Position numbers and translations under genes: made by a program. Under the pieces are notes generated by a model. That model was not told where the DNA came from. It worked only from the letters and a program-made list of their open reading frames with translations, and made no database searches. From Escherichia coli (GTDB lineage Bacteria > Pseudomonadota > Gammaproteobacteria > Enterobacterales > Enterobacteriaceae), in NCBI RefSeq assembly GCF_030013205.1, contig NZ_CP122648.1: 64,000 bases of DNA; one strand, given 5' to 3'. The first letter of the stretch is position 1, and each line of letters starts with the position of its first letter. Below are positions 12,080 to 31,337 of this stretch, piece by piece.

Positions 12080-12324
12080 CTTACCATCTCGTTTTACAGG
12101 CTTAACGTTAAAACCGACATGAGCGTAATATTCGCTGTTATCGGTGTAATTTGTTTTATATGCTAAACAAGATAGTCGAATGGTGGGGAAAAGTCACTCG
12201 AATTACGTATGAGATGCCGAATGCCACACTTTGCGTCTTATTTCTCCGACGTAAAGTTGTTTACGCAGCAAACGCGGAGTATGTCATCTGGGTTAAGAAT
12301 TGAAATTGAGAGATGCCTGAATAG

Positions 12325-12352
12325 CAAAAAAGCGCCTTTAGGGCGCTTTTTT
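12325..12352 (-). terminator. Intrinsic terminator at the end of the lysT tRNA operon
   Basis: Palindrome aaaaaagcgcc-ttta-gggcgctttttt; reads as hairpin plus U-run on either strand. Confidence 0.7.
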
Positions 12353-12356
12353 ACAT

Positions 12357-12432
12357 TGGTGGGTCGTGCAGGATTCGAACCTGCGACCAATTGATTAAAA
12401 GTCAACTGCTCTACCAACTGAGCTAACGACCC
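12357..12432 (-). tRNA. tRNA-Lys (anticodon UUU)
   Basis: Reverse complement matches recalled E. coli tRNA-Lys exactly, including encoded CCA. Confidence 0.9.
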
Positions 12433-12465
12433 CTTGCGGGATTATGCTGCTTTAATCATTCAGGA

Positions 12466-12541
12466 TGGTGGGTCGTGCAGGATTCGAACCTGCGACCAAT
12501 TGATTAAAAGTCAACTGCTCTACCAACTGAGCTAACGACCC
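12466..12541 (-). tRNA. tRNA-Lys (anticodon UUU)
   Basis: Identical 76-nt copy of the tRNA-Lys sequence. Confidence 0.9.
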
Positions 12542-12589
12542 ATACGGGTGTTACCTGAAAGATTTCTACTCGAAACCAATCTTTAAGAT

Positions 12590-12660
12590 TGGTGGGTCGT
12601 GCAGGATGACTCGCTTCGCTCGCCCTACGGGCCGTTGCTGGCGCAACGTTATCCTTCACG
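12590..12660 (-). repeat. tRNA-Lys 3'-end-derived remnant repeat (copy 1)
   Basis: First 18 nt (tggtgggtcgtgcaggat) are identical to the tRNA-Lys 3' end including CCA, then the sequence diverges into a segment with small palindromes (gttgc-gtca-gcaac, gccc-gaa-gggc when read on the - strand). Confidence 0.6.
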
Positions 12661-12687
12661 CTTAACATCTGAGTTTGATGTTAAAAC

Positions 12688-12763
12688 TGGTGGGTCGTGC
12701 AGGATTCGAACCTGCGACCAATTGATTAAAAGTCAACTGCTCTACCAACTGAGCTAACGACCC
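12688..12763 (-). tRNA. tRNA-Lys (anticodon UUU)
   Basis: Identical 76-nt copy of tRNA-Lys. Confidence 0.9.
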
Positions 12764-12765
12764 GG

Positions 12766-12841
12766 TGGTGGGTGATGACGGGATCGAACCGCCGACCCCC
12801 TCCTTGTAAGGGAGGTGCTCTCCCAGCTGAGCTAATCACCC
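12766..12841 (-). tRNA. tRNA-Val (anticodon UAC)
   Basis: Reverse complement matches recalled E. coli tRNA-Val(UAC); lies 2 nt from the adjacent tRNA-Lys. Confidence 0.9.
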
Positions 12842-12886
12842 GATACTACGCTGGATACTACAACTAACTAGGTTAGTGGTGGGTCG

Positions 12887-12957
12887 TGCAGGATGACTCG
12901 ACTTCGTCTCGCCCTTCGGGCCGTTGCTGACGCAACGTTATCCTTCACGTTTTACTA
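12887..12957 (-). repeat. tRNA-Lys 3'-end-derived remnant repeat (copy 2)
   Basis: Same structure as copy 1 with a few substitutions (tggtgggtcgtgcaggatgactcgacttcgtctcgcccttcgggccgttgctgacgcaacgttatccttcacg). Confidence 0.6.
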
Positions 12958-12976
12958 CCGCTTCCACCTTAGCGAT

Positions 12977-13052
12977 TGGTGGGTCGTGCAGGATTCGAAC
13001 CTGCGACCAATTGATTAAAAGTCAACTGCTCTACCAACTGAGCTAACGACCC
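12977..13052 (-). tRNA. lysT: tRNA-Lys (anticodon UUU), first gene of the operon
   Basis: Identical 76-nt tRNA-Lys sequence; promoter-like elements lie just upstream. Confidence 0.9.
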
Positions 13053-13094: not shown

Positions 13095-13140
13095 GGCGGC
13101 ATATATTACTGATTTCAGACTTGAGCGCAACAAAAATTTC
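13095..13140 (-). promoter_or_regulatory. Putative promoter of the lysT tRNA operon
   Basis: On the - strand: -35 TTGCGC (13125-13130), 16-bp spacer, -10 TAATAT (13103-13108), GC-rich discriminator (atgccgcc), AT-rich UP-like stretch upstream. Confidence 0.5.
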
Positions 13141-13216: not shown

Positions 13217-14008
13217 TTACATCGCGTTCAGACGTTTTTGCGCCTGTTTAGCGCCATCAGTACCAGGGTATTTACTGATAACCTGCTGGTATACGGCTTT
13301 CGCTTTTGCGGTGTCACCTTTGTCCTGCATGATGACGCCGACTTTAAACATCGCATCTGCAGCCTTCGGTGACTTCGGATAGTTTTTCACTACCGAAGCA
13401 AAATAATACGCAGCGTCATCTTTTTTACCCTTGTTGTAGTTTAACTGACCCAGCCAATAATTGGCGTTTGGCAGGTAAGTTGAATCAGGGTAATTTTTGA
13501 TGAAATTCTGAAATGCCACCATTGCGTCATCCTGGCGGGATTTATCCTGCACCAGCGCAATAGCTGCATTGTAATCCGTGTTTGCATCACCGCTTTTCAC
13601 CGGCGCGCCAGCATTCGCAGTACCAGCATCAGCTGTCGGCGTCGTTGATGCCGCCGCACCGCTTTGATCGCCGCTGGTTGATTGCGCCGCTGCACCACCG
13701 CTGCTGAGGCTATCGATCTGCAACAGGATCTGCTTTTGCCGCTCCATGACCTGATTCAGTTGATACTGATTTTCCTGAATCTGACCACGCAGGGAATCAA
13801 TATCGGATTGATTATCAGAGAGTTGTTGCTGGAGTTGGGTTAAAAGCTGGCTGTGAGCATTTGAAATACGCTCAAGTTGAGTGACGCGGTCTTCGACCGA
13901 GCCTGAGCCGACACTACTGATTGGTGCCTGAGCAAAAGCGGCCCAGGGGGCCGCTATACCAACCAGTAACGACAGACTCAATAGTTGATGTCTGAAGTTA
14001 CTGCTCAT
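13217..14008 (-). CDS. cpoB: Cell division coordinator CpoB (YbgF), TPR protein
   Basis: 263-aa ORF: signal peptide, Gln/Leu-rich coiled coil, C-terminal TPR repeats; last gene of the tol-pal cluster. Confidence 0.9.
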   Translation of the reverse strand: MSSNFRHQLLSLSLLVGIAAPWAAFAQAPISSVGSGSVEDRVTQLERISNAHSQLLTQLQQQLSDNQSDIDSLRGQIQENQYQLNQVMERQKQILLQIDSLSSGGAAAQSTSGDQSGAAASTTPTADAGTANAGAPVKSGDANTDYNAAIALVQDKSRQDDAMVAFQNFIKNYPDSTYLPNANYWLGQLNYNKGKKDDAAYYFASVVKNYPKSPKAADAMFKVGVIMQDKGDTAKAKAVYQQVISKYPGTDGAKQAQKRLNAM

Positions 14009-14017
14009 GCAATTCTC

Positions 14018-14563
<546 letters not shown>

Positions 14564-24948: not shown

Positions 24949-25398
24949 ATGAAGAAAGCAACACTTGTGATTGGCGTTATTGGCGCGGACTGCCATGCAG
25001 TAGGCAATAAAGTTCTGGACCGCGTTTTTAGCAACCATGGCTTCAGAGTCATTAATCTGGGCGTAATGGTCAGCCAGGACGAATATATTGATGCGGCCAT
25101 TGAAACTGGCGCTGACGCGATTGTCGTCTCCTCTATCTATGGGCATGGCGATATCGATTGTCTGGGCATGCGCGAACGCTGCATTGAGCGTGGGCTGGGT
25201 AACATCCTGCTCTATGTGGGCGGTAACCTGGTGGTCGGAAAACATGACTTCGCTGACGTGGAAACCAAGTTCAAAGAGATGGGATTTGATCGCGTCTTTT
25301 CCCCAAGTCATGACTTAGAAGATGTTTGTCAGCTGATGGCCCACGATATCAACCAACGTCATGACGTTGATACTCGCATTCTTGAAGAGGCAATCTGA
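24949..25398 (+). CDS. Glutamate mutase sigma (S) subunit, B12-binding (methylaspartate mutase small subunit)
   Basis: Start chosen at [21 protein letters not shown] (AAGGA RBS upstream); DxHxxG cobalamin-binding motif; aligns by eye with recalled Clostridium GlmS/MutS. Confidence 0.85.
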
Positions 25399-26786
25399 TG
25401 CAAATCGTCTCTGTCGATATTGGTTCGACGTGGACCAAAGCAGCCCTCTTCACCCGGGAGGGGGACGCGTTAACGTTGGTTAACCACGTTCTGACCCCAA
25501 CCACCACCCATCATCTGGCGAAGGGGTTTTTCTCCAGCCTGGACCAGGTGTTAAACGTAGATGATGCCCTCCCCCTGTTAAACAGTGGTGAGGTTGCATT
25601 GAAGTATTCCTCCTCTGCCAAAGGTGGGCTGGCGGTTGCCGCAATGGGATTGGTGCCTTCTATCACCCTGGAAACCGCGAAAGTAACCGCTCACTCTGCG
25701 GGTGCTAAAATTGCGCAATATTACGCCTACAAGCTGAACCGCCGTGATATCCAGGCACTGGAAGAAACGCAGCCCGATATTCTCTTGTTCACCGGCGGCA
25801 CCGATGGCGGAGAAGAAAGCTACGGACTGAATAACGCCCGTGTGTTGGCAGAATCCAAACTCGACTGCGCCATTATTTATGCCGGAAACCGGGATATTCA
25901 GGACGAGGTGCAGGAGGTCCTCGGGCATAAAGACCTGACCATCGTCGACAACGTTCTGCCCGATCTTGACCATCCGAACCCTTTAGCCGCACGCCAGGCT
26001 ATTTGCGACATATTCCTTAAACGCATCGTTAAAGGGAAAGGGCTGGATGTCATTGTTGATAAAACAGGCGAAGAACCAATGCCGACACCATGGACGGTCT
26101 TTGAACTGGTTAAGGCAATCAGTAACGTCGATCACAGCTGGAAAGAGTTCATGCTGATCGACATGGGCGGCGCAACCACCGATGTTTATTCCGCCTGTGC
26201 CAACACGCTCTCGCCCGACACCGTTCTACACGGCGTACCGGAACCCTTCGTGAAACGGACGGTGGAAGGCGATCTGGGAATGCGCGTCTCGGCAATGGTG
26301 GTTGGTGAAAGTGCGAAAGAGTTAGTCAATGTGAATTTTGCTCAGCAACCCGCACAGCTGGACGCTTTTTATCATTACCTCCGCCATCTAGTCGCTCATC
26401 CCGACTACTTACCCGCGAATGCAGAAGAAAAATATTTCGATACCGTCCTGGCCGGAGTGTGTGTGGGTTATGCCACCGAAAGACATGCGGGCACCAAAAA
26501 AGAGGTCTGCACCTGCGTCGGCAATGTCGATTTACAGATGGGACGTGATCTGACAACCGTGCGTAAAGTCGTGGGTTCCGGCGGATGGCTCTCGCGTGCC
26601 AGTCAGTTCGATATGCATCACTGGTTGAAATACCGCGAGTTAAACGACGACGGTAAACGCATTCTCTTACCGACCGAATTTGAATATTACCGCGATTCCC
26701 GGGGGCTATTACCACTGCTGGCAAACGTCGCCAGAGTCGATCCGCTGGCCGCCGCGCGCACCAGTATTCAATGCTTAACCCTATAA
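25398..26786 (+). CDS. Glutamate mutase-associated protein GlmL/MutL-like
   Basis: 462-aa ORF lying between the S and E subunit genes, the same order as in the clostridial operon; start overlaps the upstream stop. Confidence 0.7.
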   Translation: MQIVSVDIGSTWTKAALFTREGDALTLVNHVLTPTTTHHLAKGFFSSLDQVLNVDDALPLLNSGEVALKYSSSAKGGLAVAAMGLVPSITLETAKVTAHSAGAKIAQYYAYKLNRRDIQALEETQPDILLFTGGTDGGEESYGLNNARVLAESKLDCAIIYAGNRDIQDEVQEVLGHKDLTIVDNVLPDLDHPNPLAARQAICDIFLKRIVKGKGLDVIVDKTGEEPMPTPWTVFELVKAISNVDHSWKEFMLIDMGGATTDVYSACANTLSPDTVLHGVPEPFVKRTVEGDLGMRVSAMVVGESAKELVNVNFAQQPAQLDAFYHYLRHLVAHPDYLPANAEEKYFDTVLAGVCVGYATERHAGTKKEVCTCVGNVDLQMGRDLTTVRKVVGSGGWLSRASQFDMHHWLKYRELNDDGKRILLPTEFEYYRDSRGLLPLLANVARVDPLAAARTSIQCLTL

Positions 26787-26804
26787 CAATTAAGGCTGCA
26801 ATCA

Positions 26805-28250
26805 ATGGAACTTCGAAATAAGAAATTAACCCATGACGAATTCATGACCGAGCGGCAACAGGTACTGAAAACCTGGGAAACCGGCAAGGATGTTGAAAAC
26901 TTTGAAGATGGCGTTAAATACCAACAAACCATCCCTGAGCATAAACGCTTCTCTCTTGCGCTGCTGAAAGCAGACAAGGAAGGTAAAACCCTTAGCCAAC
27001 CGCGCGCAGGTGTGGCGCTGATGGACGAACACATCGAACTACTGAAAACACTACAAGAAGAGTGCGATCTGCTGCCGAGCACTATCGATGCATATACCCG
27101 TCTGAATCGGTACGAAGAAGCGGCTGTAGGGATTAAAAAATCCATCGAAGCCGGAACCTCTAAACTGAACGGTTTGCCGGTAGTTAACCATGGCGTCGCA
27201 GCTTGCCGTCGCCTCACCGAAGCCCTGCAAAAACCGCTACAGATCCGCCACGGCACGCCAGATGCGCGTCTGCTGGCTGAAATCTCGATGTCCAGCGGCT
27301 TTACCAGTTACGAAGGCGGCGGCATTTCCTACAACATTCCGTATGCCAAACGCGTAACGCTGGAAAAATCGATCCGCGACTGGCAGTACTGCGACCGTTT
27401 AATGGGGATGTATGAAGAACACGGGATCCGCATCAACCGCGAACCGTTTGGCCCACTAACGGGTACGCTGATCCCGCCGTTTATCTCGCACTCTATCGCG
27501 ATCATCGAAGGCTTGCTGGCGCTGGAACAGGGTGTGAAATCTATCACCGTTGGTTATGGACAGGTCGGCAGCCTGACGCAGGATGTTGCGGCGATCCAGT
27601 CTCTGCGTGAACTTGCACACGAATATTTTCAGAGCTATGGCTATACCGACTATGAATTAAGTACCGTGTTTCACCAGTGGATGGGCGGCTTTCCGGAAGA
27701 CGAATCGAAAGCGTTCGCTATTATCTCCTGGGGCGCAGCCGTCGCGGGGATGTCTGGTGCCACCAAAGTCATCACCAAAAGTCCGCACGAAGCCTGGGGT
27801 ATCCCGACTGCCGCTGCCAACATTCAGGGGCTGAAAGCCTCCCGCCAGATGCTCAACATGGTCAACGAGCAGAAATTCCCGCCGTGCCCTGCGGTTGAAC
27901 TGGAAATTGAACTGATTAAGAGCGAGGTTCGCGCAGTACTGAATAAAGTGTTCGAACTGGGTAATGGTGATATTGCGCGCGGTACGGTGCTGGCATTTGA
28001 AGCGGGCGTACTGGATGTGCCGTTTGCACCAGCCGCGTGTAACGCGGGCAAAATTCTTCCGGTCCGTGACAACACCGGCGCGATACGCGTACTGGAAGCC
28101 GGAGCCGTTCCATTGCCAAAAGATATTCTCGACCTCCACCACGATTACGTTGCTGAACGCGCACGCTTTGAAGGACGCCAACCGACATTCCAGATGGTTG
28201 TAGATGACATCAATGCTGTATCCCACAGTAAATTAATAGGAAGACCATAA
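26805..28250 (+). CDS. Glutamate mutase epsilon (E) subunit (methylaspartate mutase large subunit)
   Basis: 481-aa ORF, size and position consistent with GlmE/MutE; TIM-barrel-type sequence. Confidence 0.8.
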   Translation: MELRNKKLTHDEFMTERQQVLKTWETGKDVENFEDGVKYQQTIPEHKRFSLALLKADKEGKTLSQPRAGVALMDEHIELLKTLQEECDLLPSTIDAYTRLNRYEEAAVGIKKSIEAGTSKLNGLPVVNHGVAACRRLTEALQKPLQIRHGTPDARLLAEISMSSGFTSYEGGGISYNIPYAKRVTLEKSIRDWQYCDRLMGMYEEHGIRINREPFGPLTGTLIPPFISHSIAIIEGLLALEQGVKSITVGYGQVGSLTQDVAAIQSLRELAHEYFQSYGYTDYELSTVFHQWMGGFPEDESKAFAIISWGAAVAGMSGATKVITKSPHEAWGIPTAAANIQGLKASRQMLNMVNEQKFPPCPAVELEIELIKSEVRAVLNKVFELGNGDIARGTVLAFEAGVLDVPFAPAACNAGKILPVRDNTGAIRVLEAGAVPLPKDILDLHHDYVAERARFEGRQPTFQMVVDDINAVSHSKLIGRP

Positions 28251-29491
28251 TGAAAATAAAACAGGCCCTGTTCACCGCTGGCTACTCCTCATTCTATTTC
28301 GATGACCAGCAGGCGATAAAAAACGGAGCGGGTCATGACGGCTTTTTTTATACCGGGGAGCCAGTAACACAGGGGTTTAACGCCGTACGTCAGGCCGGGG
28401 AGTGCGTATCGGTACAGTTGATTCTGGAAAACGGCGCGGTCGCCGTAGGTGACTGTGCTGCCGTACAGTATTCCGGGGCAGGTGGTCGCGATCCACTGTT
28501 CCTCGCGGAGCACTTTATTCCGTTCCTCAACGACCATATCAAGCCATTACTGGTAGGCCGCGATGTGGATACTTTCCTGCCGAATGCCCGTTTCTTCGAC
28601 AAATTGCGTATTGACGGCAACTTGCTGCATACCGCCGTGCGCTACGGATTATCACAGGCGCTGCTTGATGCTACCGCGCTGGCAACCGGCCGTCTGAAAA
28701 CTGAAGTGGTCTGTGATGAATGGCAGTTGCCACGCGTGGCGGAATCCATTCCATTATTTGGTCAGAGCGGCGACGATCGATATATCGCCGTCGATAAGAT
28801 GATCCTTAAGGGCATCGACGTGCTGCCCCATGCACTGATTAATAACGTCGAAGAGAAACTGGGCTTTAAAGGTGAAAAACTGCGCGAATATGTCCGCTGG
28901 CTGTCGGATCGTATTCTGAGCAAGCGCACCAGCGCACGCTACCACCCTACCCTGCACATCGATGTATACGGCACTATCGGTCTGATCTTCGATATGGATC
29001 CGCTTCGCTGTGCGCAATACATCGCCAGCCTGGAAAAAGAAGCGCAAGGCCTGCCGCTCTACATTGAAGGTCCGGTCGATGCCGGTAACAAGCCCGATCA
29101 AATTCGCCTGCTGACCGCGATTACCAAAGAGCTGACGCGCCTCGGTTCCGGCGTGAAACTAGTGGCCGATGAATGGTGTAACACCTACCAGGATATTGTT
29201 GATTTCACCGATGCCGCCAGTTGCCACATGGTGCAAATCAAAACCCCGGATCTGGGCAGTATTCACAACATCGTCAATGCAGTTCTTTATTGCAACAGCC
29301 ACAGCATGGAAGCGTACCAGGGCGGCACCTGCAATGAAACTGATGTCAGTGCCCGCACCTGTGTCCACGTCGCCCTTGCCGCTCGCCCCATGCGTATGCT
29401 GGTAAAACCAGGGATGGGCTTTGACGAAGGCCTCGATATCGTCTTCAACGAAATGAATCGTACTATCGCGCTGTTGCAGGCTAAGGATTAA
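28250..29491 (+). CDS. 3-Methylaspartate ammonia-lyase
   Basis: 413-aa ORF (enolase superfamily size), immediately downstream of and overlapping the E subunit gene (TAATG). Confidence 0.8.
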   Translation: MKIKQALFTAGYSSFYFDDQQAIKNGAGHDGFFYTGEPVTQGFNAVRQAGECVSVQLILENGAVAVGDCAAVQYSGAGGRDPLFLAEHFIPFLNDHIKPLLVGRDVDTFLPNARFFDKLRIDGNLLHTAVRYGLSQALLDATALATGRLKTEVVCDEWQLPRVAESIPLFGQSGDDRYIAVDKMILKGIDVLPHALINNVEEKLGFKGEKLREYVRWLSDRILSKRTSARYHPTLHIDVYGTIGLIFDMDPLRCAQYIASLEKEAQGLPLYIEGPVDAGNKPDQIRLLTAITKELTRLGSGVKLVADEWCNTYQDIVDFTDAASCHMVQIKTPDLGSIHNIVNAVLYCNSHSMEAYQGGTCNETDVSARTCVHVALAARPMRMLVKPGMGFDEGLDIVFNEMNRTIALLQAKD

Positions 29492-29494
29492 CAA

Positions 29495-30865
29495 ATGGCT
29501 CGTTCTTTTAAAGTCTTATCGCCTACGGCAATCCTCGGGTATGGATTCCCGGAGGAGAGCTTCCGCAAAGCGATGGCAGAATCGCCCGATCTGATCGCCG
29601 TTGATGCTGGCTCTTCCGATCCTGGCCCCCACTACCTCGGGGCGGGCAAACCGTTTACCGATCGCGCAGGGGTCAAGCGCGATCTGCGCTATATGATCAC
29701 CGCAGGCGTGCAAAATAATATACCGGTGGTGATCGGAACGGCCGGCGGTTCTGGTGCCGCTCCACACCTGGAGTGGTGCCGAGAAATAATTCATGAGATT
29801 GCCCGGGAAGAGCACCTCTCGTTCTCGATGGCGCTGATCCCGGCAGACGTTGACAAAGCCATCGTCCACCAGGCGCTGGATAACGGCAAAATCACGGCGC
29901 TGGATTTTGTCCCGCCGTTAACCCACGACGCGATTGACGAAAGTACGTATATCGTCGCGCAAATGGGCATCGAACCCTTCCAGCAGGCGCTGAAAGAAGG
30001 CGCGCAAGTGGTGCTGGGCGGGCGCGCTTACGACCCGGCCTGCTTTGCTGCGCTACCGATCATGCAAGGCTTTGATGAAGGTCTGGCGCTGCATTGTGGG
30101 AAAATCCTTGAATGCGCGGCAATCGCCGCAACGCCCGGCTCAGGCTCTGACTGTGCGATGGGCATCATTGATGACAACGGCTTTACGCTGAAGACATTTA
30201 ATCCGAAGCGTAAATTTACCGAAACGTCAGCAGCTGCACACACACTGTATGAGAAATCCGATCCCTACTTCCTGCCAGGACCTGGCGGCGTGTTGAACCT
30301 GAAAAGCTGCACATTTAAAGCGGTCAATGACGGCGAAGTGTACGTCAGCGGTTCTAAGCATGAAGAAACGCCGTATTCCCTGAAACTGGAAGGTGCGCGA
30401 CGGGTGGGCTTCCGCTGTCTGACCATCGCCGGAACGCGCGACCCGATCATGATCGCCGGGATCGATAAAATCATCGATGAAGTCAAAACCAGCGTTTCGC
30501 GTAACCTGTCGCTCGACGATGACAGCATTCACATCAATTTCCACCTGTACGGCAAAAACGGGGTGATGGGCGACCATGAACCGATGCAAACTGCCGGGCA
30601 TGAGCTGGGGATTGTCCTTGATGTAGTTGCACCGACCCAGGAAATTGCCAACAGCGTTTGCTCGCTGGTGCGCTCTACCATGCTGCACTACGGCTATGAA
30701 AACCGCATCGCTACCGCAGGTAATCTGGCGTTCCCGTTCTCCCCTTCTGATATTCAGGGCGGGCCGGTATACGAATTTTCCATATATCACCTGATTGAAG
30801 CCAACGACGCTCTGCGTTTTGATTTCCATATTGAACAGGTGACGCCAGAAGGAGTTCAGGCATGA
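29495..30865 (+). CDS. DUF1446 (AtuA-like) family protein, function unknown
   Basis: 456-aa ORF 3 nt after the lyase stop; family assignment from memory of this size class and its usual pairing with a small DUF4387 partner. Confidence 0.55.
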   Translation: MARSFKVLSPTAILGYGFPEESFRKAMAESPDLIAVDAGSSDPGPHYLGAGKPFTDRAGVKRDLRYMITAGVQNNIPVVIGTAGGSGAAPHLEWCREIIHEIAREEHLSFSMALIPADVDKAIVHQALDNGKITALDFVPPLTHDAIDESTYIVAQMGIEPFQQALKEGAQVVLGGRAYDPACFAALPIMQGFDEGLALHCGKILECAAIAATPGSGSDCAMGIIDDNGFTLKTFNPKRKFTETSAAAHTLYEKSDPYFLPGPGGVLNLKSCTFKAVNDGEVYVSGSKHEETPYSLKLEGARRVGFRCLTIAGTRDPIMIAGIDKIIDEVKTSVSRNLSLDDDSIHINFHLYGKNGVMGDHEPMQTAGHELGIVLDVVAPTQEIANSVCSLVRSTMLHYGYENRIATAGNLAFPFSPSDIQGGPVYEFSIYHLIEANDALRFDFHIEQVTPEGVQA

Positions 30866-31061
30866 AACAGTCAATTGTCTCACTGGCGCAAGTCATTCGT
30901 TCGAAAAATGCCGGACCTTACGAACTGGTTTTAGATATTTTATTTAAAACCAAAGAAAACTATGAGCGAGTCAAATCATCAGGGCAATTAACCCCAGAAC
31001 TGATTGGGTGATGCTGCCAACTTACTGATTTAGTGTATGATGGTGTTTTTGAGGTGCTCCA

Positions 31062-31337
31062 GTGGCTTCTGTTTCTATCAGCTGTCCCTCCTGTTCAGCT
31101 ACTGACGGGGTGGTGCGTAACGGCAAAAGCACCGCCGGACATCAGCGCTATCTCTGCTCTCACTGCCGTAAAACATGGCAACTACAGTTCACTTACGCCG
31201 CCTCTCAGCCCGGTACGCACCAGAAAATCATTGATATGGCCATGAATGGCGTCGGATGTCGCGCCAGTGCACGCATTATTGGCGTTGGCCTCAACACGAT
31301 TTTCCGCCACTTAAAAAACTCAGGCCGCAGTCGGTAA
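31062..31337 (+). CDS. insA: IS1 protein InsA
   Basis: 91-aa ORF with zinc-finger Cys residues (CPSCSA...CSHC). Confidence 0.9.

Follow-up and report, generated by a model that had tools for sequence, protein, structure and literature searches.

The founding member of the RtT family is rtT/rttR, an element of the Escherichia coli tyrT-tyrV operon (Bosl and Kersten 1991, as discussed in PMC3318445). Processing of the lysT operon, which contains five of the six K-12 tRNA-Lys genes and is essential in K-12 (PMC11480407), was described in that strain by Agrawal, Mohanty and Kushner (2014; PMC4176162). The sections of their paper that deal with lysT attribute the separation of its tRNAs mainly to RNase P, with RNase E only helping; the spacers were probed, and in those sections processing intermediates alone are described, with no report of discrete spacer species or repeats. 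Partial tRNA genes (attR fragments) are known from the far end of islands and prophages (Williams 2002 and Reiter 1989, both as cited in PMC9897764), and changes in tRNA gene copy number via tandem duplications are described in work on Pseudomonas fluorescens SBW25 (PMC7661048, PMC10954465). Our literature search found no account of RtT units within the lysT operon, nor of how they vary between strains.

The locus analyzed here lies in a 64-kb stretch of E. coli DNA (the window) whose chromosome is that of the pig ETEC strain ETEC4079 (1 mismatch over 31,307 bases). The window contains exactly five tRNA genes, in the order Lys, Val, Lys, Lys, Lys on the minus strand, as called by ARAGORN and by the Rfam tRNA model, and neither found further tRNA genes anywhere in the 64 kb. 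The operon is flanked by tolB-pal-cpoB on one side and nadA-pnuC on the other; it thus occupies the lysT position between cpoB (ybgF) and nadA and shares both its upstream region and its terminator with K-12. An 18-mer, ATCCTGCACGACCCACCA, occurs six times in the window, always on the minus strand (expected chance copies in 100 shuffles, 0.00): four copies belong to tRNA-Lys genes, and the other two stand free, at 12877-12894 and 12590-12607. The first-pass annotation of this DNA had listed five tRNA genes plus two remnants bearing a tRNA-Lys end, and ARAGORN, Rfam and the exact 18-nt copies bear this out, with no intact tRNA beyond the five. We consider it likely, with a probability of roughly 0.8, that the locus is a contracted natural allele of the E. 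coli lysT operon, that both "remnants" are old, tRNA-derived short forms of RtT, and that the repeat-loss and RNA steps proposed below apply to it. The operon and its spacer elements are real, ordinary and already known.

In transcription order, the operon runs lysT, RtT, valT, lysW/Y, RtT, lysZ, lysQ, terminator, spanning a predicted 732 bp between the first base of lysT and the last of the terminator, and all coordinates given here are on the minus strand. A candidate lysT promoter (13103..13130) has a -35 element TTGCGC at 13130-13125, a 16-nt spacer and a -10 element TAATAT at 13108-13103. As read from the sequence, a GC-rich discriminator, GCCGCC, follows the -10 and an A/T-rich stretch precedes the -35, and from these features we infer that this is the lysT promoter; over the 88 nt ahead of lysT the sequence does not differ from that of K-12. 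The first gene called by ARAGORN, tRNA-Lys(UUU) no. 1 (12977..13052; Rfam 79.2 bits), is the equivalent of K-12 lysT and identical in sequence to K-12 tRNA-Lys. It is followed by RtT short-form unit 1, of 100 nt (12877..12976), which is orthologous to the element in the K-12 lysT-valT spacer and consists of a type-A, position-specific 5' segment with a GGUGG motif (12950-12976) and a 73-nt structured core (12877-12949). The core runs from the box CGTGAAGGAT (12940-12949) through the hairpins P2, Pc and P3 to the 18-nt tRNA-Lys 3'-end copy (12877-12894); the MFE fold of the unit is -28.5 kcal/mol (z -3.8). The 35-nt spacer between unit 1 and tRNA-Val (12842..12876) corresponds, with one substitution, to the entire lysT-valT spacer of RtT-less strains such as ATCC 25922.

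The equivalent of K-12 valT, tRNA-Val(UAC) (12766..12841; ARAGORN; Rfam 65.9 bits), is followed by a 2-nt CC spacer, the same as between K-12 valT and lysW. The next ARAGORN call, tRNA-Lys(UUU) no. 2 (12688..12763), is a lysW/lysY hybrid, with the lysW-like valT-CC arrangement upstream and the K-12 lysY-lysZ spacer downstream. That spacer begins with RtT short-form unit 2 (98 nt, 12590..12687), the ortholog of the K-12 lysY-lysZ element; its 5' part is a type-B hairpin (12661-12687), followed by a 71-nt core (12590-12660), with the box CGTGAAGGAT at 12651-12660 and the 18-nt tRNA-Lys copy at 12590-12607, and the entire unit folds with a z of -3.5. The 48-nt spacer from unit 2 to tRNA-Lys no. 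3 (12542..12589) is, apart from a few substitutions, the entire 48-nt spacer of RtT-less strains. ARAGORN places tRNA-Lys(UUU) no. 3, the lysZ equivalent, at 12466..12541, and the 33-nt spacer behind it (12433..12465) is without RtT, matching the post-remnant part of the K-12 lysZ-lysQ spacer with one substitution. The last gene, tRNA-Lys(UUU) no. 4 (12357..12432; ARAGORN, Rfam tRNA model), is equivalent to lysQ. A Rho-independent terminator, atgtAAAAAAGCGCCctaaaGGCGCTTTTTTgctat, read from the sequence and present in a single copy (12321..12356), follows it. Terminator and preceding 18 nt together form a 54-nt repeat that in K-12 and the closest relatives brackets a 156-bp trailing RtT unit; this unit is absent after tRNA-Lys no. 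4 in ETEC4079. A simple promoter/terminator scan of the window called neither the K-12-identical promoter region nor the terminator, the latter probably missed through an A/T run that extends the stem, and its only calls were the P2 palindromes, on the opposite strand and no more numerous than expected by chance. Tandem Repeats Finder found no array in the window; the units number too few, with dissimilar spacers between them.

Both spacer elements score above the RF00391 gathering score of 45 (60.6 bits for unit 1 and 54.4 bits for unit 2), a threshold reached partly because the alignments, which contain a 44-nt insertion, already start within the upstream tRNA-Lys. The RtT 5' domain (model positions roughly 24-62, comprising the GGUUCGA T-arm half and CGAGCG..AGCGAGA) is missing from the short form, and the cmscan alignment fills these positions with the upstream tRNA-Lys; both the K-12 trailing long form and the Photorhabdus units possess the domain. 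In placement, both units lie in the operon on the same strand, 3' of a tRNA gene, and begin directly after the tRNA-Lys CCA. At their 3' ends they copy the host tRNA from the T loop through CCA, with 18/18 nt identical to tRNA-Lys, and the tyrT RtT units end in the equivalent 19 nt of tRNA-Tyr. K-12 itself has five RF00391 matches in its lysT operon, one after each tRNA-Lys. The suggestion, raised in the first-pass annotation as an alternative, that the remnants are standard spacer repeats was therefore right: K-12 has five, Rfam places the units above threshold and they occur in many genera. That annotation had also correctly seen the 18-nt tRNA-Lys end and a conserved segment, which it read in plus-strand order; in the direction of transcription the conserved segment precedes the CCA-bearing 18-mer, which forms the 3' end of the element. 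Its estimate of about 55 nt describes a real segment, and the structured cores including the 18-mer measure 73 and 71 nt. In sister strains RefSeq places an "RtT sRNA" behind the final Lys gene; only this trailing long form is marked and the internal short forms go unannotated, so such "remnants" can be expected to be rediscovered again and again. Four clustered "RtT RNA" annotations of 166-170 nt in a Klebsiella paper (PMC4147364) are probably the same kind of match. A coding reading of the units in the style of the tyrT tpr was rejected: the two differ in length by 2 nt within P3 and indels of 1-4 nt occur among family members, so that no reading frame is conserved.

The elements extend far beyond E. 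coli. An exact 24-mer (CGAGTC plus the 18-mer) occurs at no fewer than 120 loci across many genera, among them Citrobacter, Enterobacter, Klebsiella, Salmonella, Erwinia, Dickeya, Pectobacterium, Serratia and Photorhabdus. At every locus with retrieved upstream DNA, the 24-mer is preceded by a tRNA-Lys or by a further RtT unit, and the position-specific 5' types are common to different genera. RtT elements are thus old structured spacers after tRNA-Lys(UUU) genes throughout the Enterobacterales. Units in Photorhabdus and Chimaeribacter (RtT score, 77 bits) join tRNA-Lys positions 1-58 (49-57/58 identical) to a 64-nt cassette and the 18-mer, and Photorhabdus arrays comprise 10 or more units. 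Since such units are almost whole tRNA-Lys copies whose T loop holds a cassette, the elements are anciently tRNA-derived: RtT elements are distant derivatives of tRNA with a structured cassette in the T loop. The position of the cassette, at 58/59, is common to Lys- and Tyr-derived units.

Each RtT element is predicted to fold into a four-way junction. Its outer helix, on which RNAalifold and single-sequence folds agree, pairs the box CGTGAAGGAT with the tRNA-derived strand ATCCTGCACG (9/10 pairs). A covariation count on the family alignment (A1) found 94.1% of cells paired and double changes in seven pairs, as against 2.4 ± 0.9 in shuffles (0/500 reached seven) and at most three in slid controls. 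Two hairpins covary within the element. In P2, whose stem is 98.7% paired (closing pair, 100%), five of the six pairs show double changes. Within A1 the 3' strand of the outer helix is fixed by the search pattern and cannot covary, so that support for this helix comes from thermodynamics and from the comparison of Lys with Tyr elements (two compensatory pairs, one A.G mismatch). The lysT and tyrT boxes differ exactly where their host tRNAs differ, and the tyrT rtT box GGGGAAGGAT complements the tRNA-Tyr-derived ATCCTTCCCC at every position, which argues that the box tracks its host tRNA. In the Rfam alignment the tRNA T loop would pair at long range with CCCGAAGG; for the short form this was set aside, a local GCCC/GGGC hairpin being predicted instead.

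Compared with K-12, whose seven genes the first-pass annotation had stated correctly, the arrangement is not identical: five genes are present, and the unit of valZ plus one Lys is missing. Removal of 304, 99 and 156 bp from the K-12 operon yields that of the window, with 8 substitutions over about 890 nt. The 304-bp segment, containing valZ and one Lys, is bounded by tRNA-Lys copies, and its junction falls somewhere in tRNA-Lys no. 2 and the next 11 nt (an 87-nt repeat). The 99-bp segment is one RtT unit bounded by 18-mer direct repeats; its junction is the last 18 nt of tRNA-Lys no. 3 (12466-12483), where the K-12 RtT unit is missing. The 156-bp segment, a trailing RtT plus a duplicate terminator, is bounded by the 54-bp repeats of 18-mer plus terminator. 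Contraction of the array by recombination between repeats, as first proposed, thus holds relative to K-12, with three repeat-bounded segments accounting for the difference. Direct repeats of three kinds (76-bp tRNA-Lys copies, 18-bp copies closing RtT units, and the 54-bp 18-mer-plus-terminator repeat) allow units to be lost or gained between them by slippage or unequal recombination, and three such events, of 304, 99 and 156 bp, separate ETEC4079 from K-12. Outgroups and parsimony lead us to infer that the direction was loss rather than gain.

Within E. coli the locus is very polymorphic, with eleven architectures among 13 parsed strains, including seven tRNAs with no RtT at all (ATCC 25922) and trailing units numbering 0, 1 or 2; across strains, the lysT operon carries 0 to 6 RtT units. 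Allele frequencies come from samples of 59-60 genomes, and locus lengths, obtained with a flank-only query from an evenly spread sample, take about 17 values among 59 genomes. In the 59 genomes about 88% carry 5 Lys (with 2 Val where the count was displayed), about 10% carry 4 Lys and 2 Val, and about 2% carry 4 Lys and 1 Val; overall, the last combination recurs in no fewer than 60 complete genomes, E24377A and B7A among them. BLAST counts at ">=80% coverage" (169, 1027 and 3920) were rejected as allele counts because insertions in the subject leave query coverage unlowered. The short spacers of RtT-less strains match the post-remnant parts of the K-12 spacers position for position, with a few substitutions, and spacers with and without RtT coexist within one operon. 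Strains without RtT in the operon show that the element is dispensable, and those with seven tRNAs and no RtT show that it is not needed for processing. The allele of ETEC4079 has one tRNA-Lys(UUU) and one tRNA-Val(UAC) fewer than K-12, which matters little; four tRNA-Lys copies clearly suffice, since many wild strains carry the allele. As a small, highly polymorphic repeat array, the locus could confuse assemblies and variant calls. "Intergenic SNVs" at lysT have been reported in laboratory-evolution papers.

Other explanations of the same pattern differ in what they make of the repeats. Were the remnants stubs of the two missing tRNA genes, left by internal deletions as the array contracted, a link implied in the first-pass annotation, one would point to the match between two remnants and two genes fewer than K-12 and to the exact tRNA-Lys 3' end that each carries. 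The K-12 comparison refutes this and leaves it almost no credence: five such elements are present in the full seven-gene operon of K-12; both window units are orthologous to K-12 spacer elements; and one missing gene is a tRNA-Val, yet both remnants are Lys-type. Moreover, the missing valZ and Lys left no scar, their junction lying inside a perfect 87-nt repeat, the elements occur in many genera, and the remnants pre-date the contraction. We also find it very improbable that the 18-nt copies are att-site scars of an integrative element that entered the tRNA-Lys 3' end, was later reduced to about 80 nt and was excised by an integrase. An intact tRNA, an insert and a direct repeat from T loop to CCA do form the footprint of tRNA integration (van der Gulik et al. 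2023, PMC9897764), and entire units are precisely present or absent between strains; the latter does not discriminate, because deletion between direct repeats gives the same outcome, and with 18-bp repeats about 100 bp apart such deletion requires no integrase. Against an att origin, the 80-82 nt between tRNA and repeat contain no gene, for an integrase or otherwise, the insert forms a conserved RNA structure that shows covariation, position-specific variants common to different genera mark the units as old residents, and a dsDNA circle of 99-156 bp would be implausible as a recombination intermediate. Nor did a viral-contig scan with the core motif GGCCCGNAGGGCGAG, an unspecific 14-base GC-rich pattern, show the RtT 3' signature at any of the 120 loci listed. 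Collapse of tandem repeats during assembly is a concern in a region made of 76-bp and roughly 100-150-bp repeats, particularly as ETEC4079 alone among nearly identical pig-ETEC relatives is without the 156-bp trailing unit. Such an artefact is nevertheless highly unlikely: the four-Lys/one-Val core, from which valZ, one Lys and the lysZ-lysQ RtT are all missing, is shared by 60 or more independent complete genomes (eight sister ETEC strains as well as E24377A and B7A among them), the identical architecture without the trailing unit recurs in the unrelated EPSSH018 and ET201, and all junctions are clean, in-register repeat junctions.

The remaining proposals concern what an RtT unit might do. 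One holds that it would be a functional processing module, a tRNA-minihelix mimic (a T-stem-like plus an acceptor-like helix followed by ACC) that would recruit RNase P to the long spacers between a Lys gene and the next gene; the number of such modules would tune maturation of the operon. The box, in which acceptor positions 5-7 are joined to the 5' strand of the T stem, pairs with the strand copied from the tRNA, and A-C-C follows the helix, and the lysT sections of PMC4176162 make operon separation depend mainly on RNase P; the function is deduced from shape alone, though, and seven-tRNA strains without RtT exist, as do operons in which RtT-bearing and RtT-free spacers coexist, so that we hold this unlikely. 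Similarly doubtful, if a shade less so, is the proposal that the units are selected, T-loop-interrupted derivatives of tRNA(Lys/Tyr), that is, CCA-ended tRNA mimics with a four-way junction, which would be excised by tRNA-processing enzymes and act in trans. If so, their targets might be RelA and the stringent response, on which rtT is said to have once been proposed to act, or enzymes reading tRNA 3' ends; the 0-6 units per lysT operon and the Photorhabdus arrays would amount to a tunable dosage, and the 58/59 cassette common to Lys and Tyr units would point to site-specific spread between tRNA genes.

For the reading we prefer, that of a contracted lysT allele with old RtT short forms in its spacers, the RNA steps, some of them shown in K-12 by others, may be sketched as follows. 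The entire array would be transcribed as one precursor, from which RNase P, helped by RNase E, would separate the tRNAs, and each RtT would fold on its own into its four-way junction. Pairing of the box CGTGAAGGAT with ATCCTGCACG would keep the latter from competing with the neighboring tRNA-Lys 3' strand. Because an RtT ends in the same ...ACCCACCA as a tRNA, the exonucleases that trim tRNA 3' ends should stop there, leaving a discrete, CCA-ended RNA of about 70-100 nt. By analogy with tyrT, whose 171-nt rtT RNA reportedly sets the precedent for a discrete released RNA, lysT would release a stable RtT RNA. The 18-nt tRNA ends in lysT spacers are not to be taken as gene decay; they belong to a structured, tRNA-derived family that is conserved across a bacterial order.

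Set beside the known systems, the lysT units share with tyrT rtT their place 3' of a tRNA gene in the same transcript, tandem repetition, a 5' box complementary to the copied tRNA 3' end, and the succession of P2 hairpin, invariant GGCCCGAAGGGCGA motif and P3 hairpin. They differ in size (about 100 nt with a 71-73-nt core, against 171-178 nt), in being without the 5' domain (the GGTTCGA T-arm half and the CGAGCG..AGCGAGA segment) and in lying between tRNA genes, whereas tyrT rtT follows the last one; the lysT box also keeps GAAGG as in the Tyr type, hence its one A.G mismatch to the Lys strand. With attR fragments, RtT has in common a repeat of the tRNA 3' part from the T loop onward, shortly downstream of an intact gene; unlike them, it has no mobile element between the repeats, the intervening 80 nt being structured RNA orthologous across genera. 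As in SBW25, the tRNA complement shifts through repeat recombination and varies within the species. The lysT events are small (99-304 bp) and confined to one operon, with tRNA genes and RtT ends serving as repeats, and they represent standing natural polymorphism, whereas the SBW25 changes arose in laboratory populations. The K-12 operon agrees with that of the window in chromosomal position, tRNA sequences, terminator and orthologous spacers, and differs in having seven tRNAs, five RtT units and two terminators, against five, two and one.

ARAGORN, with the Rfam tRNA model in agreement, placed five tRNA genes on the minus strand, in transcription order tRNA-Lys(UUU) (12977-13052), tRNA-Val(UAC) (12766-12841) and three further tRNA-Lys (12688-12763, 12466-12541 and 12357-12432), and ARAGORN found no tRNA gene elsewhere in the 64-kb window. 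The 18-mer ATCCTGCACGACCCACCA, i.e., the final 18 nt of tRNA-Lys, occurs six times where chance predicts none; four occurrences lie within the Lys genes and two are free-standing (12877-12894 and 12590-12607, minus strand). The five genes and two free tRNA-Lys 3' ends reported in the first-pass annotation are thus confirmed, and the feature is real. Its statement that each remnant starts with the 18 nt described the plus strand; in transcription order, the copy closes the element at its 3' end. The operon is flanked by tolB-pal-cpoB and nadA-pnuC, as is the K-12 lysT operon, and the 88 nt preceding the first tRNA are completely identical to K-12. The operon region is 100% identical to that of E. 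coli ETEC4079, a pig faecal isolate, and window bases 1-31,307 differ from the ETEC4079 chromosome by a single mismatch (position 14526; window C, record T). Within the flank, the pal-cpoB intercistronic region (13979-14117, minus strand) matches the CpoB/ybgF RNA thermometer (RF02782, 142 bits) and is identical in K-12. By identity with ETEC4079, ~24950-31300, beyond the cyd operon, holds a methylaspartate mutase/methylaspartate ammonia-lyase cluster, a truncated DUF4387 gene and an IS1. The mutase/ammonia-lyase cluster is not known from K-12.

Both remnants match the RtT RNA family (RF00391), scoring 60.6 and 54.4 bits against an Rfam gathering score of 45. The K-12 lysT operon has five tRNA-Lys genes, each with an RtT match behind it; the fifth match is a long form that sits past the terminator and is followed by an identical second terminator (2654-2845 of the K-12 locus), so its transcription would need read-through. 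Given these matches in both the window and K-12, the remnants are standard operon architecture, the alternative of "standard spacer repeats" that had been left open. RefSeq labels the trailing copy "RtT sRNA" in sister strains. RefSeq/PGAP annotates only free-standing long forms, leaving the internal short forms unannotated in K-12 and in the window-matching record, presumably because their Rfam matches overlap tRNA-Lys. The four clustered "RtT RNA" annotations of 166-170 nt in a Klebsiella study (PMC4147364) are probably the same kind of match.

We then compared the operon with K-12 spacer by spacer. The first Lys-Val spacer (135 nt with RtT) corresponds to the K-12 lysT-valT spacer, Val-CC-Lys to valT-lysW, the following spacer (146 nt with RtT) to lysY-lysZ, and the 33-nt spacer, with one substitution, to the post-RtT part of lysZ-lysQ; the last Lys leads to one terminator only. 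Removing three segments from K-12 in silico yielded the window operon with 8 substitutions in ~890 nt: 304 bp from lysW through the CTC before lysY (loss of valZ and one Lys; bounded by an 87-nt repeat), 99 bp comprising one RtT unit (bounded by the 18-mer), and 156 bp comprising the trailing RtT and duplicate terminator (bounded by a 54-nt repeat). These repeat-bounded differences bear out, relative to K-12, the earlier suggestion of contraction by recombination between repeats. The terminator-to-nadA intergenic stretch (~12200-12320, minus strand) shows ~30 differences from K-12 in ~100 nt, compared to the operon's 8 in ~890 nt. The 156-bp trailing unit is absent from the window, single in K-12 and double in TUM20902 (see also compared loci L002, 2395-2586, and L007, 2403-2750). 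Eight pig ETEC strains, the nearest relatives, retain this unit in an otherwise matching operon.

To place this allele within E. coli, we parsed the cpoB-nadA interval of 13 strains, which displayed 11 distinct architectures. Each Lys-to-next-gene spacer has two states, long with RtT (135/149/146/132 nt) or short (35/51/48/33 nt), the short being, position for position save a few substitutions, the post-remnant part of the long. The trailing unit is present in 0, 1 or 2 copies, and losses of Val-Lys units or terminal Lys genes differ by strain, VL40 lacking valT-lysW instead. In ATCC 25922 and AR_0077, the operon has its full set of seven tRNAs yet lacks RtT entirely, so RtT is dispensable there. 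A flank-only query of 59 genomes sampled evenly across 5,425 complete genomes returned ~17 locus lengths: 52 of the 59 had 5 Lys (2 Val where the count was displayed), 6 had 4 Lys and 2 Val, and 1 had 4 Lys and 1 Val. The best 60 matches to the window operon, E24377A and B7A among them, all have 4 Lys and 1 Val; EPSSH018 and ET201 share its entire architecture, absence of the trailing unit included. Because of these sampled frequencies and this recurrence in other genomes, the five-gene operon is an established natural allele carried by a minority of complete genomes (roughly 1-3%). Among small E. coli loci, lysT ranks with the more polymorphic.

Beyond E. coli, at least 120 loci carry the exact 24-mer formed by CGAGTC and the 18-mer; they span Citrobacter, Enterobacter, Klebsiella, Salmonella, Atlantibacter, Erwinia, Dickeya, Pectobacterium, Serratia, Edwardsiella, Photorhabdus and others, and, among loci with upstream DNA retrieved, the 24-mer always lies downstream of tRNA-Lys(UUU) or another RtT unit. 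Short forms (Lys, ~82 nt, 18-mer) occur inside lysT-type operons, and long forms (Lys, ~137-160 nt, 18-mer), often in tandem, past the terminators of lysT-type and valU-type (Val-Val-Val-Lys) operons. In E. coli and across the Enterobacterales, the latter carry at least one long form ~137 nt behind tRNA-Lys (e.g., L061, L017, L033, L042, L059, L097 and many more of the compared loci). RtT appears to be a general companion of tRNA-Lys(UUU) genes, within and beyond the lysT operon. The 27 nt at the 5' end of a short form are specific to its position in the operon: type A, containing GGTGG, stands behind the first Lys, and type B, with a TTAACATC...GATGTTAA hairpin, behind the Lys that follows Val. 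Since both types are common to several genera, RtT units are old residents, and the RtT-less E. coli spacers are most simply read, from outgroups and parsimony rather than a tree, as derived deletions between 18-bp direct repeats.

The tRNA ancestry of RtT is best preserved in tandem arrays of 176-nt units in Photorhabdus, with 10.7 copies in P. asymbiotica (locus L027, 8655-10531). Each unit consists of near-intact tRNA-Lys positions 1-58 (49-57/58 identical) with a UUU anticodon arm, a 64-nt cassette (hairpins P2, Pc and P3) and the 18-mer, i.e., a tRNA-Lys whose T loop is split between A58 and A59. As RtT, these Photorhabdus units reach 77 bits, with the tRNA body aligned to the 5' half of the Rfam model, and therefore the matches in the window extend over the upstream tRNA-Lys. 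Further T-loop-interrupted units were found in L020, L026, L038, L104, L113-L115 and L106 (Chimaeribacter); the acceptor and anticodon arms are intact in some copies, others show point changes, and ARAGORN calls no tRNA in these arrays. One Pectobacterium and two Erwinia units keep tRNA-Lys ~28-58 upstream of the cassette, Enterobacteriaceae long forms keep only GCAGGTTCGA (49-58), and the tyrT unit runs ...CCAAGGTTCGA, cassette, then ATCC.... The description "tRNA-derived" therefore holds more deeply than 18 nt, but the derivation is ancient and unrelated to the two genes missing here.

RNAalifold on an alignment of 62 distinct short forms (A1) predicted a four-way junction: an outer helix of CGTGAAGGAT with ATCCTGCACG (the first 10 nt of the 18-mer; one A.G mismatch), hairpins P2 (CGTTGC/GCAACG), Pc (GCCC/GGGC) and P3 (GAC/GTC, or GC/GC in a variant 2 nt shorter), and the 3' tail ACCCACCA. 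Folding the two window units singly reproduced this shape, in the MFE structure for unit 1 and in the centroid for unit 2, with core free energies of -28.5 kcal/mol (z -3.8) and -25.3 kcal/mol (z -1.95) and whole-unit z of -2.5 and -3.5, respectively. In the MFE fold of the type-A unit (5' segment 12950-12976), the conserved GGUGG (A1 columns 11-15) pairs with CCACC of its own tail (12877-12886); pairing with the 3' end of the preceding tRNA-Lys, 8 nt away, would be just as possible. By count, 94.1% of A1 cells are paired, and 7 pairs, all in P2 and P3, show double changes, compared to 2.4 ± 0.9 in shuffles (0/500 reach 7) and at most 3 in slid controls. The outer helix is invariant in A1 because the search pattern fixed its 3' strand. 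In the K-12 tyrT rtT repeats, the 5' strand of this helix (the box), GGGGAAGGAT, is the exact complement of the tRNA-Tyr-derived strand ATCCTTCCCC, two pairs being changed on both sides relative to the Lys type; at the sequence level, this is independent support for the outer helix and indicates that the box tracks the host tRNA. We read the box of both types as acceptor positions 5-7 joined to the T-stem 5' strand, which would make it the 5' strand of a tRNA "minihelix." On the opposite strand, the P2 palindromes and the TTATCCTT behind them were also flagged as resembling terminators (12633-12648 and 12922-12937, plus strand); these 2 flags are probably meaningless, as shuffled sequences give a comparable number (1.4 ± 1.2).

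We considered other origins for the remnants and the short operon. Stubs of the two lost genes are refuted by K-12, which has seven genes and five RtT. The repeat geometry would fit att-site scars of an integrative element (PMC9897764), but this origin is very improbable, as no mobile element separates the repeats, the sequence they enclose is a conserved structured RNA and orthologous units occur in different genera. Assembly collapse is unlikely for the five-gene core arrangement, seen in at least 60 independent genomes, and is a remote possibility for the strain-specific 156-bp difference. Comparison of alleles shows gain and loss of units between direct repeats, whether tRNA-Lys genes, the 18-mer, or the 18-mer plus terminator.

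Agrawal, Mohanty and Kushner (2014, PMC4176162) describe the K-12 lysT operon as a single precursor whose tRNAs require RNase P for separation, with RNase E contributing in the spacers; they give its terminator as the same as that of valU and presume its removal by RNase P. Within such a precursor, each RtT would fold autonomously, its box sequestering the tRNA-like strand and so preventing mispairing with the neighboring tRNA-Lys body, and 3' trimming should halt at the tRNA-identical CCA end, leaving a discrete RNA by analogy with the 171-nt rtT RNA of tyrT. From its shape only, RtT might be an RNase P entry module, an attractive though unlikely idea, and a stringent-response role has been suggested for rtT (summarized in 10.1101/2024.07.17.603846). 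Worth noting for the RtT family are the precise presence/absence polymorphism, the host-tRNA-tracking box and the T-loop-interrupted tRNA-Lys arrays. The operon itself is explained by an element family and a tRNA operon that were both known, present here as a contracted natural allele common to many sequenced strains.
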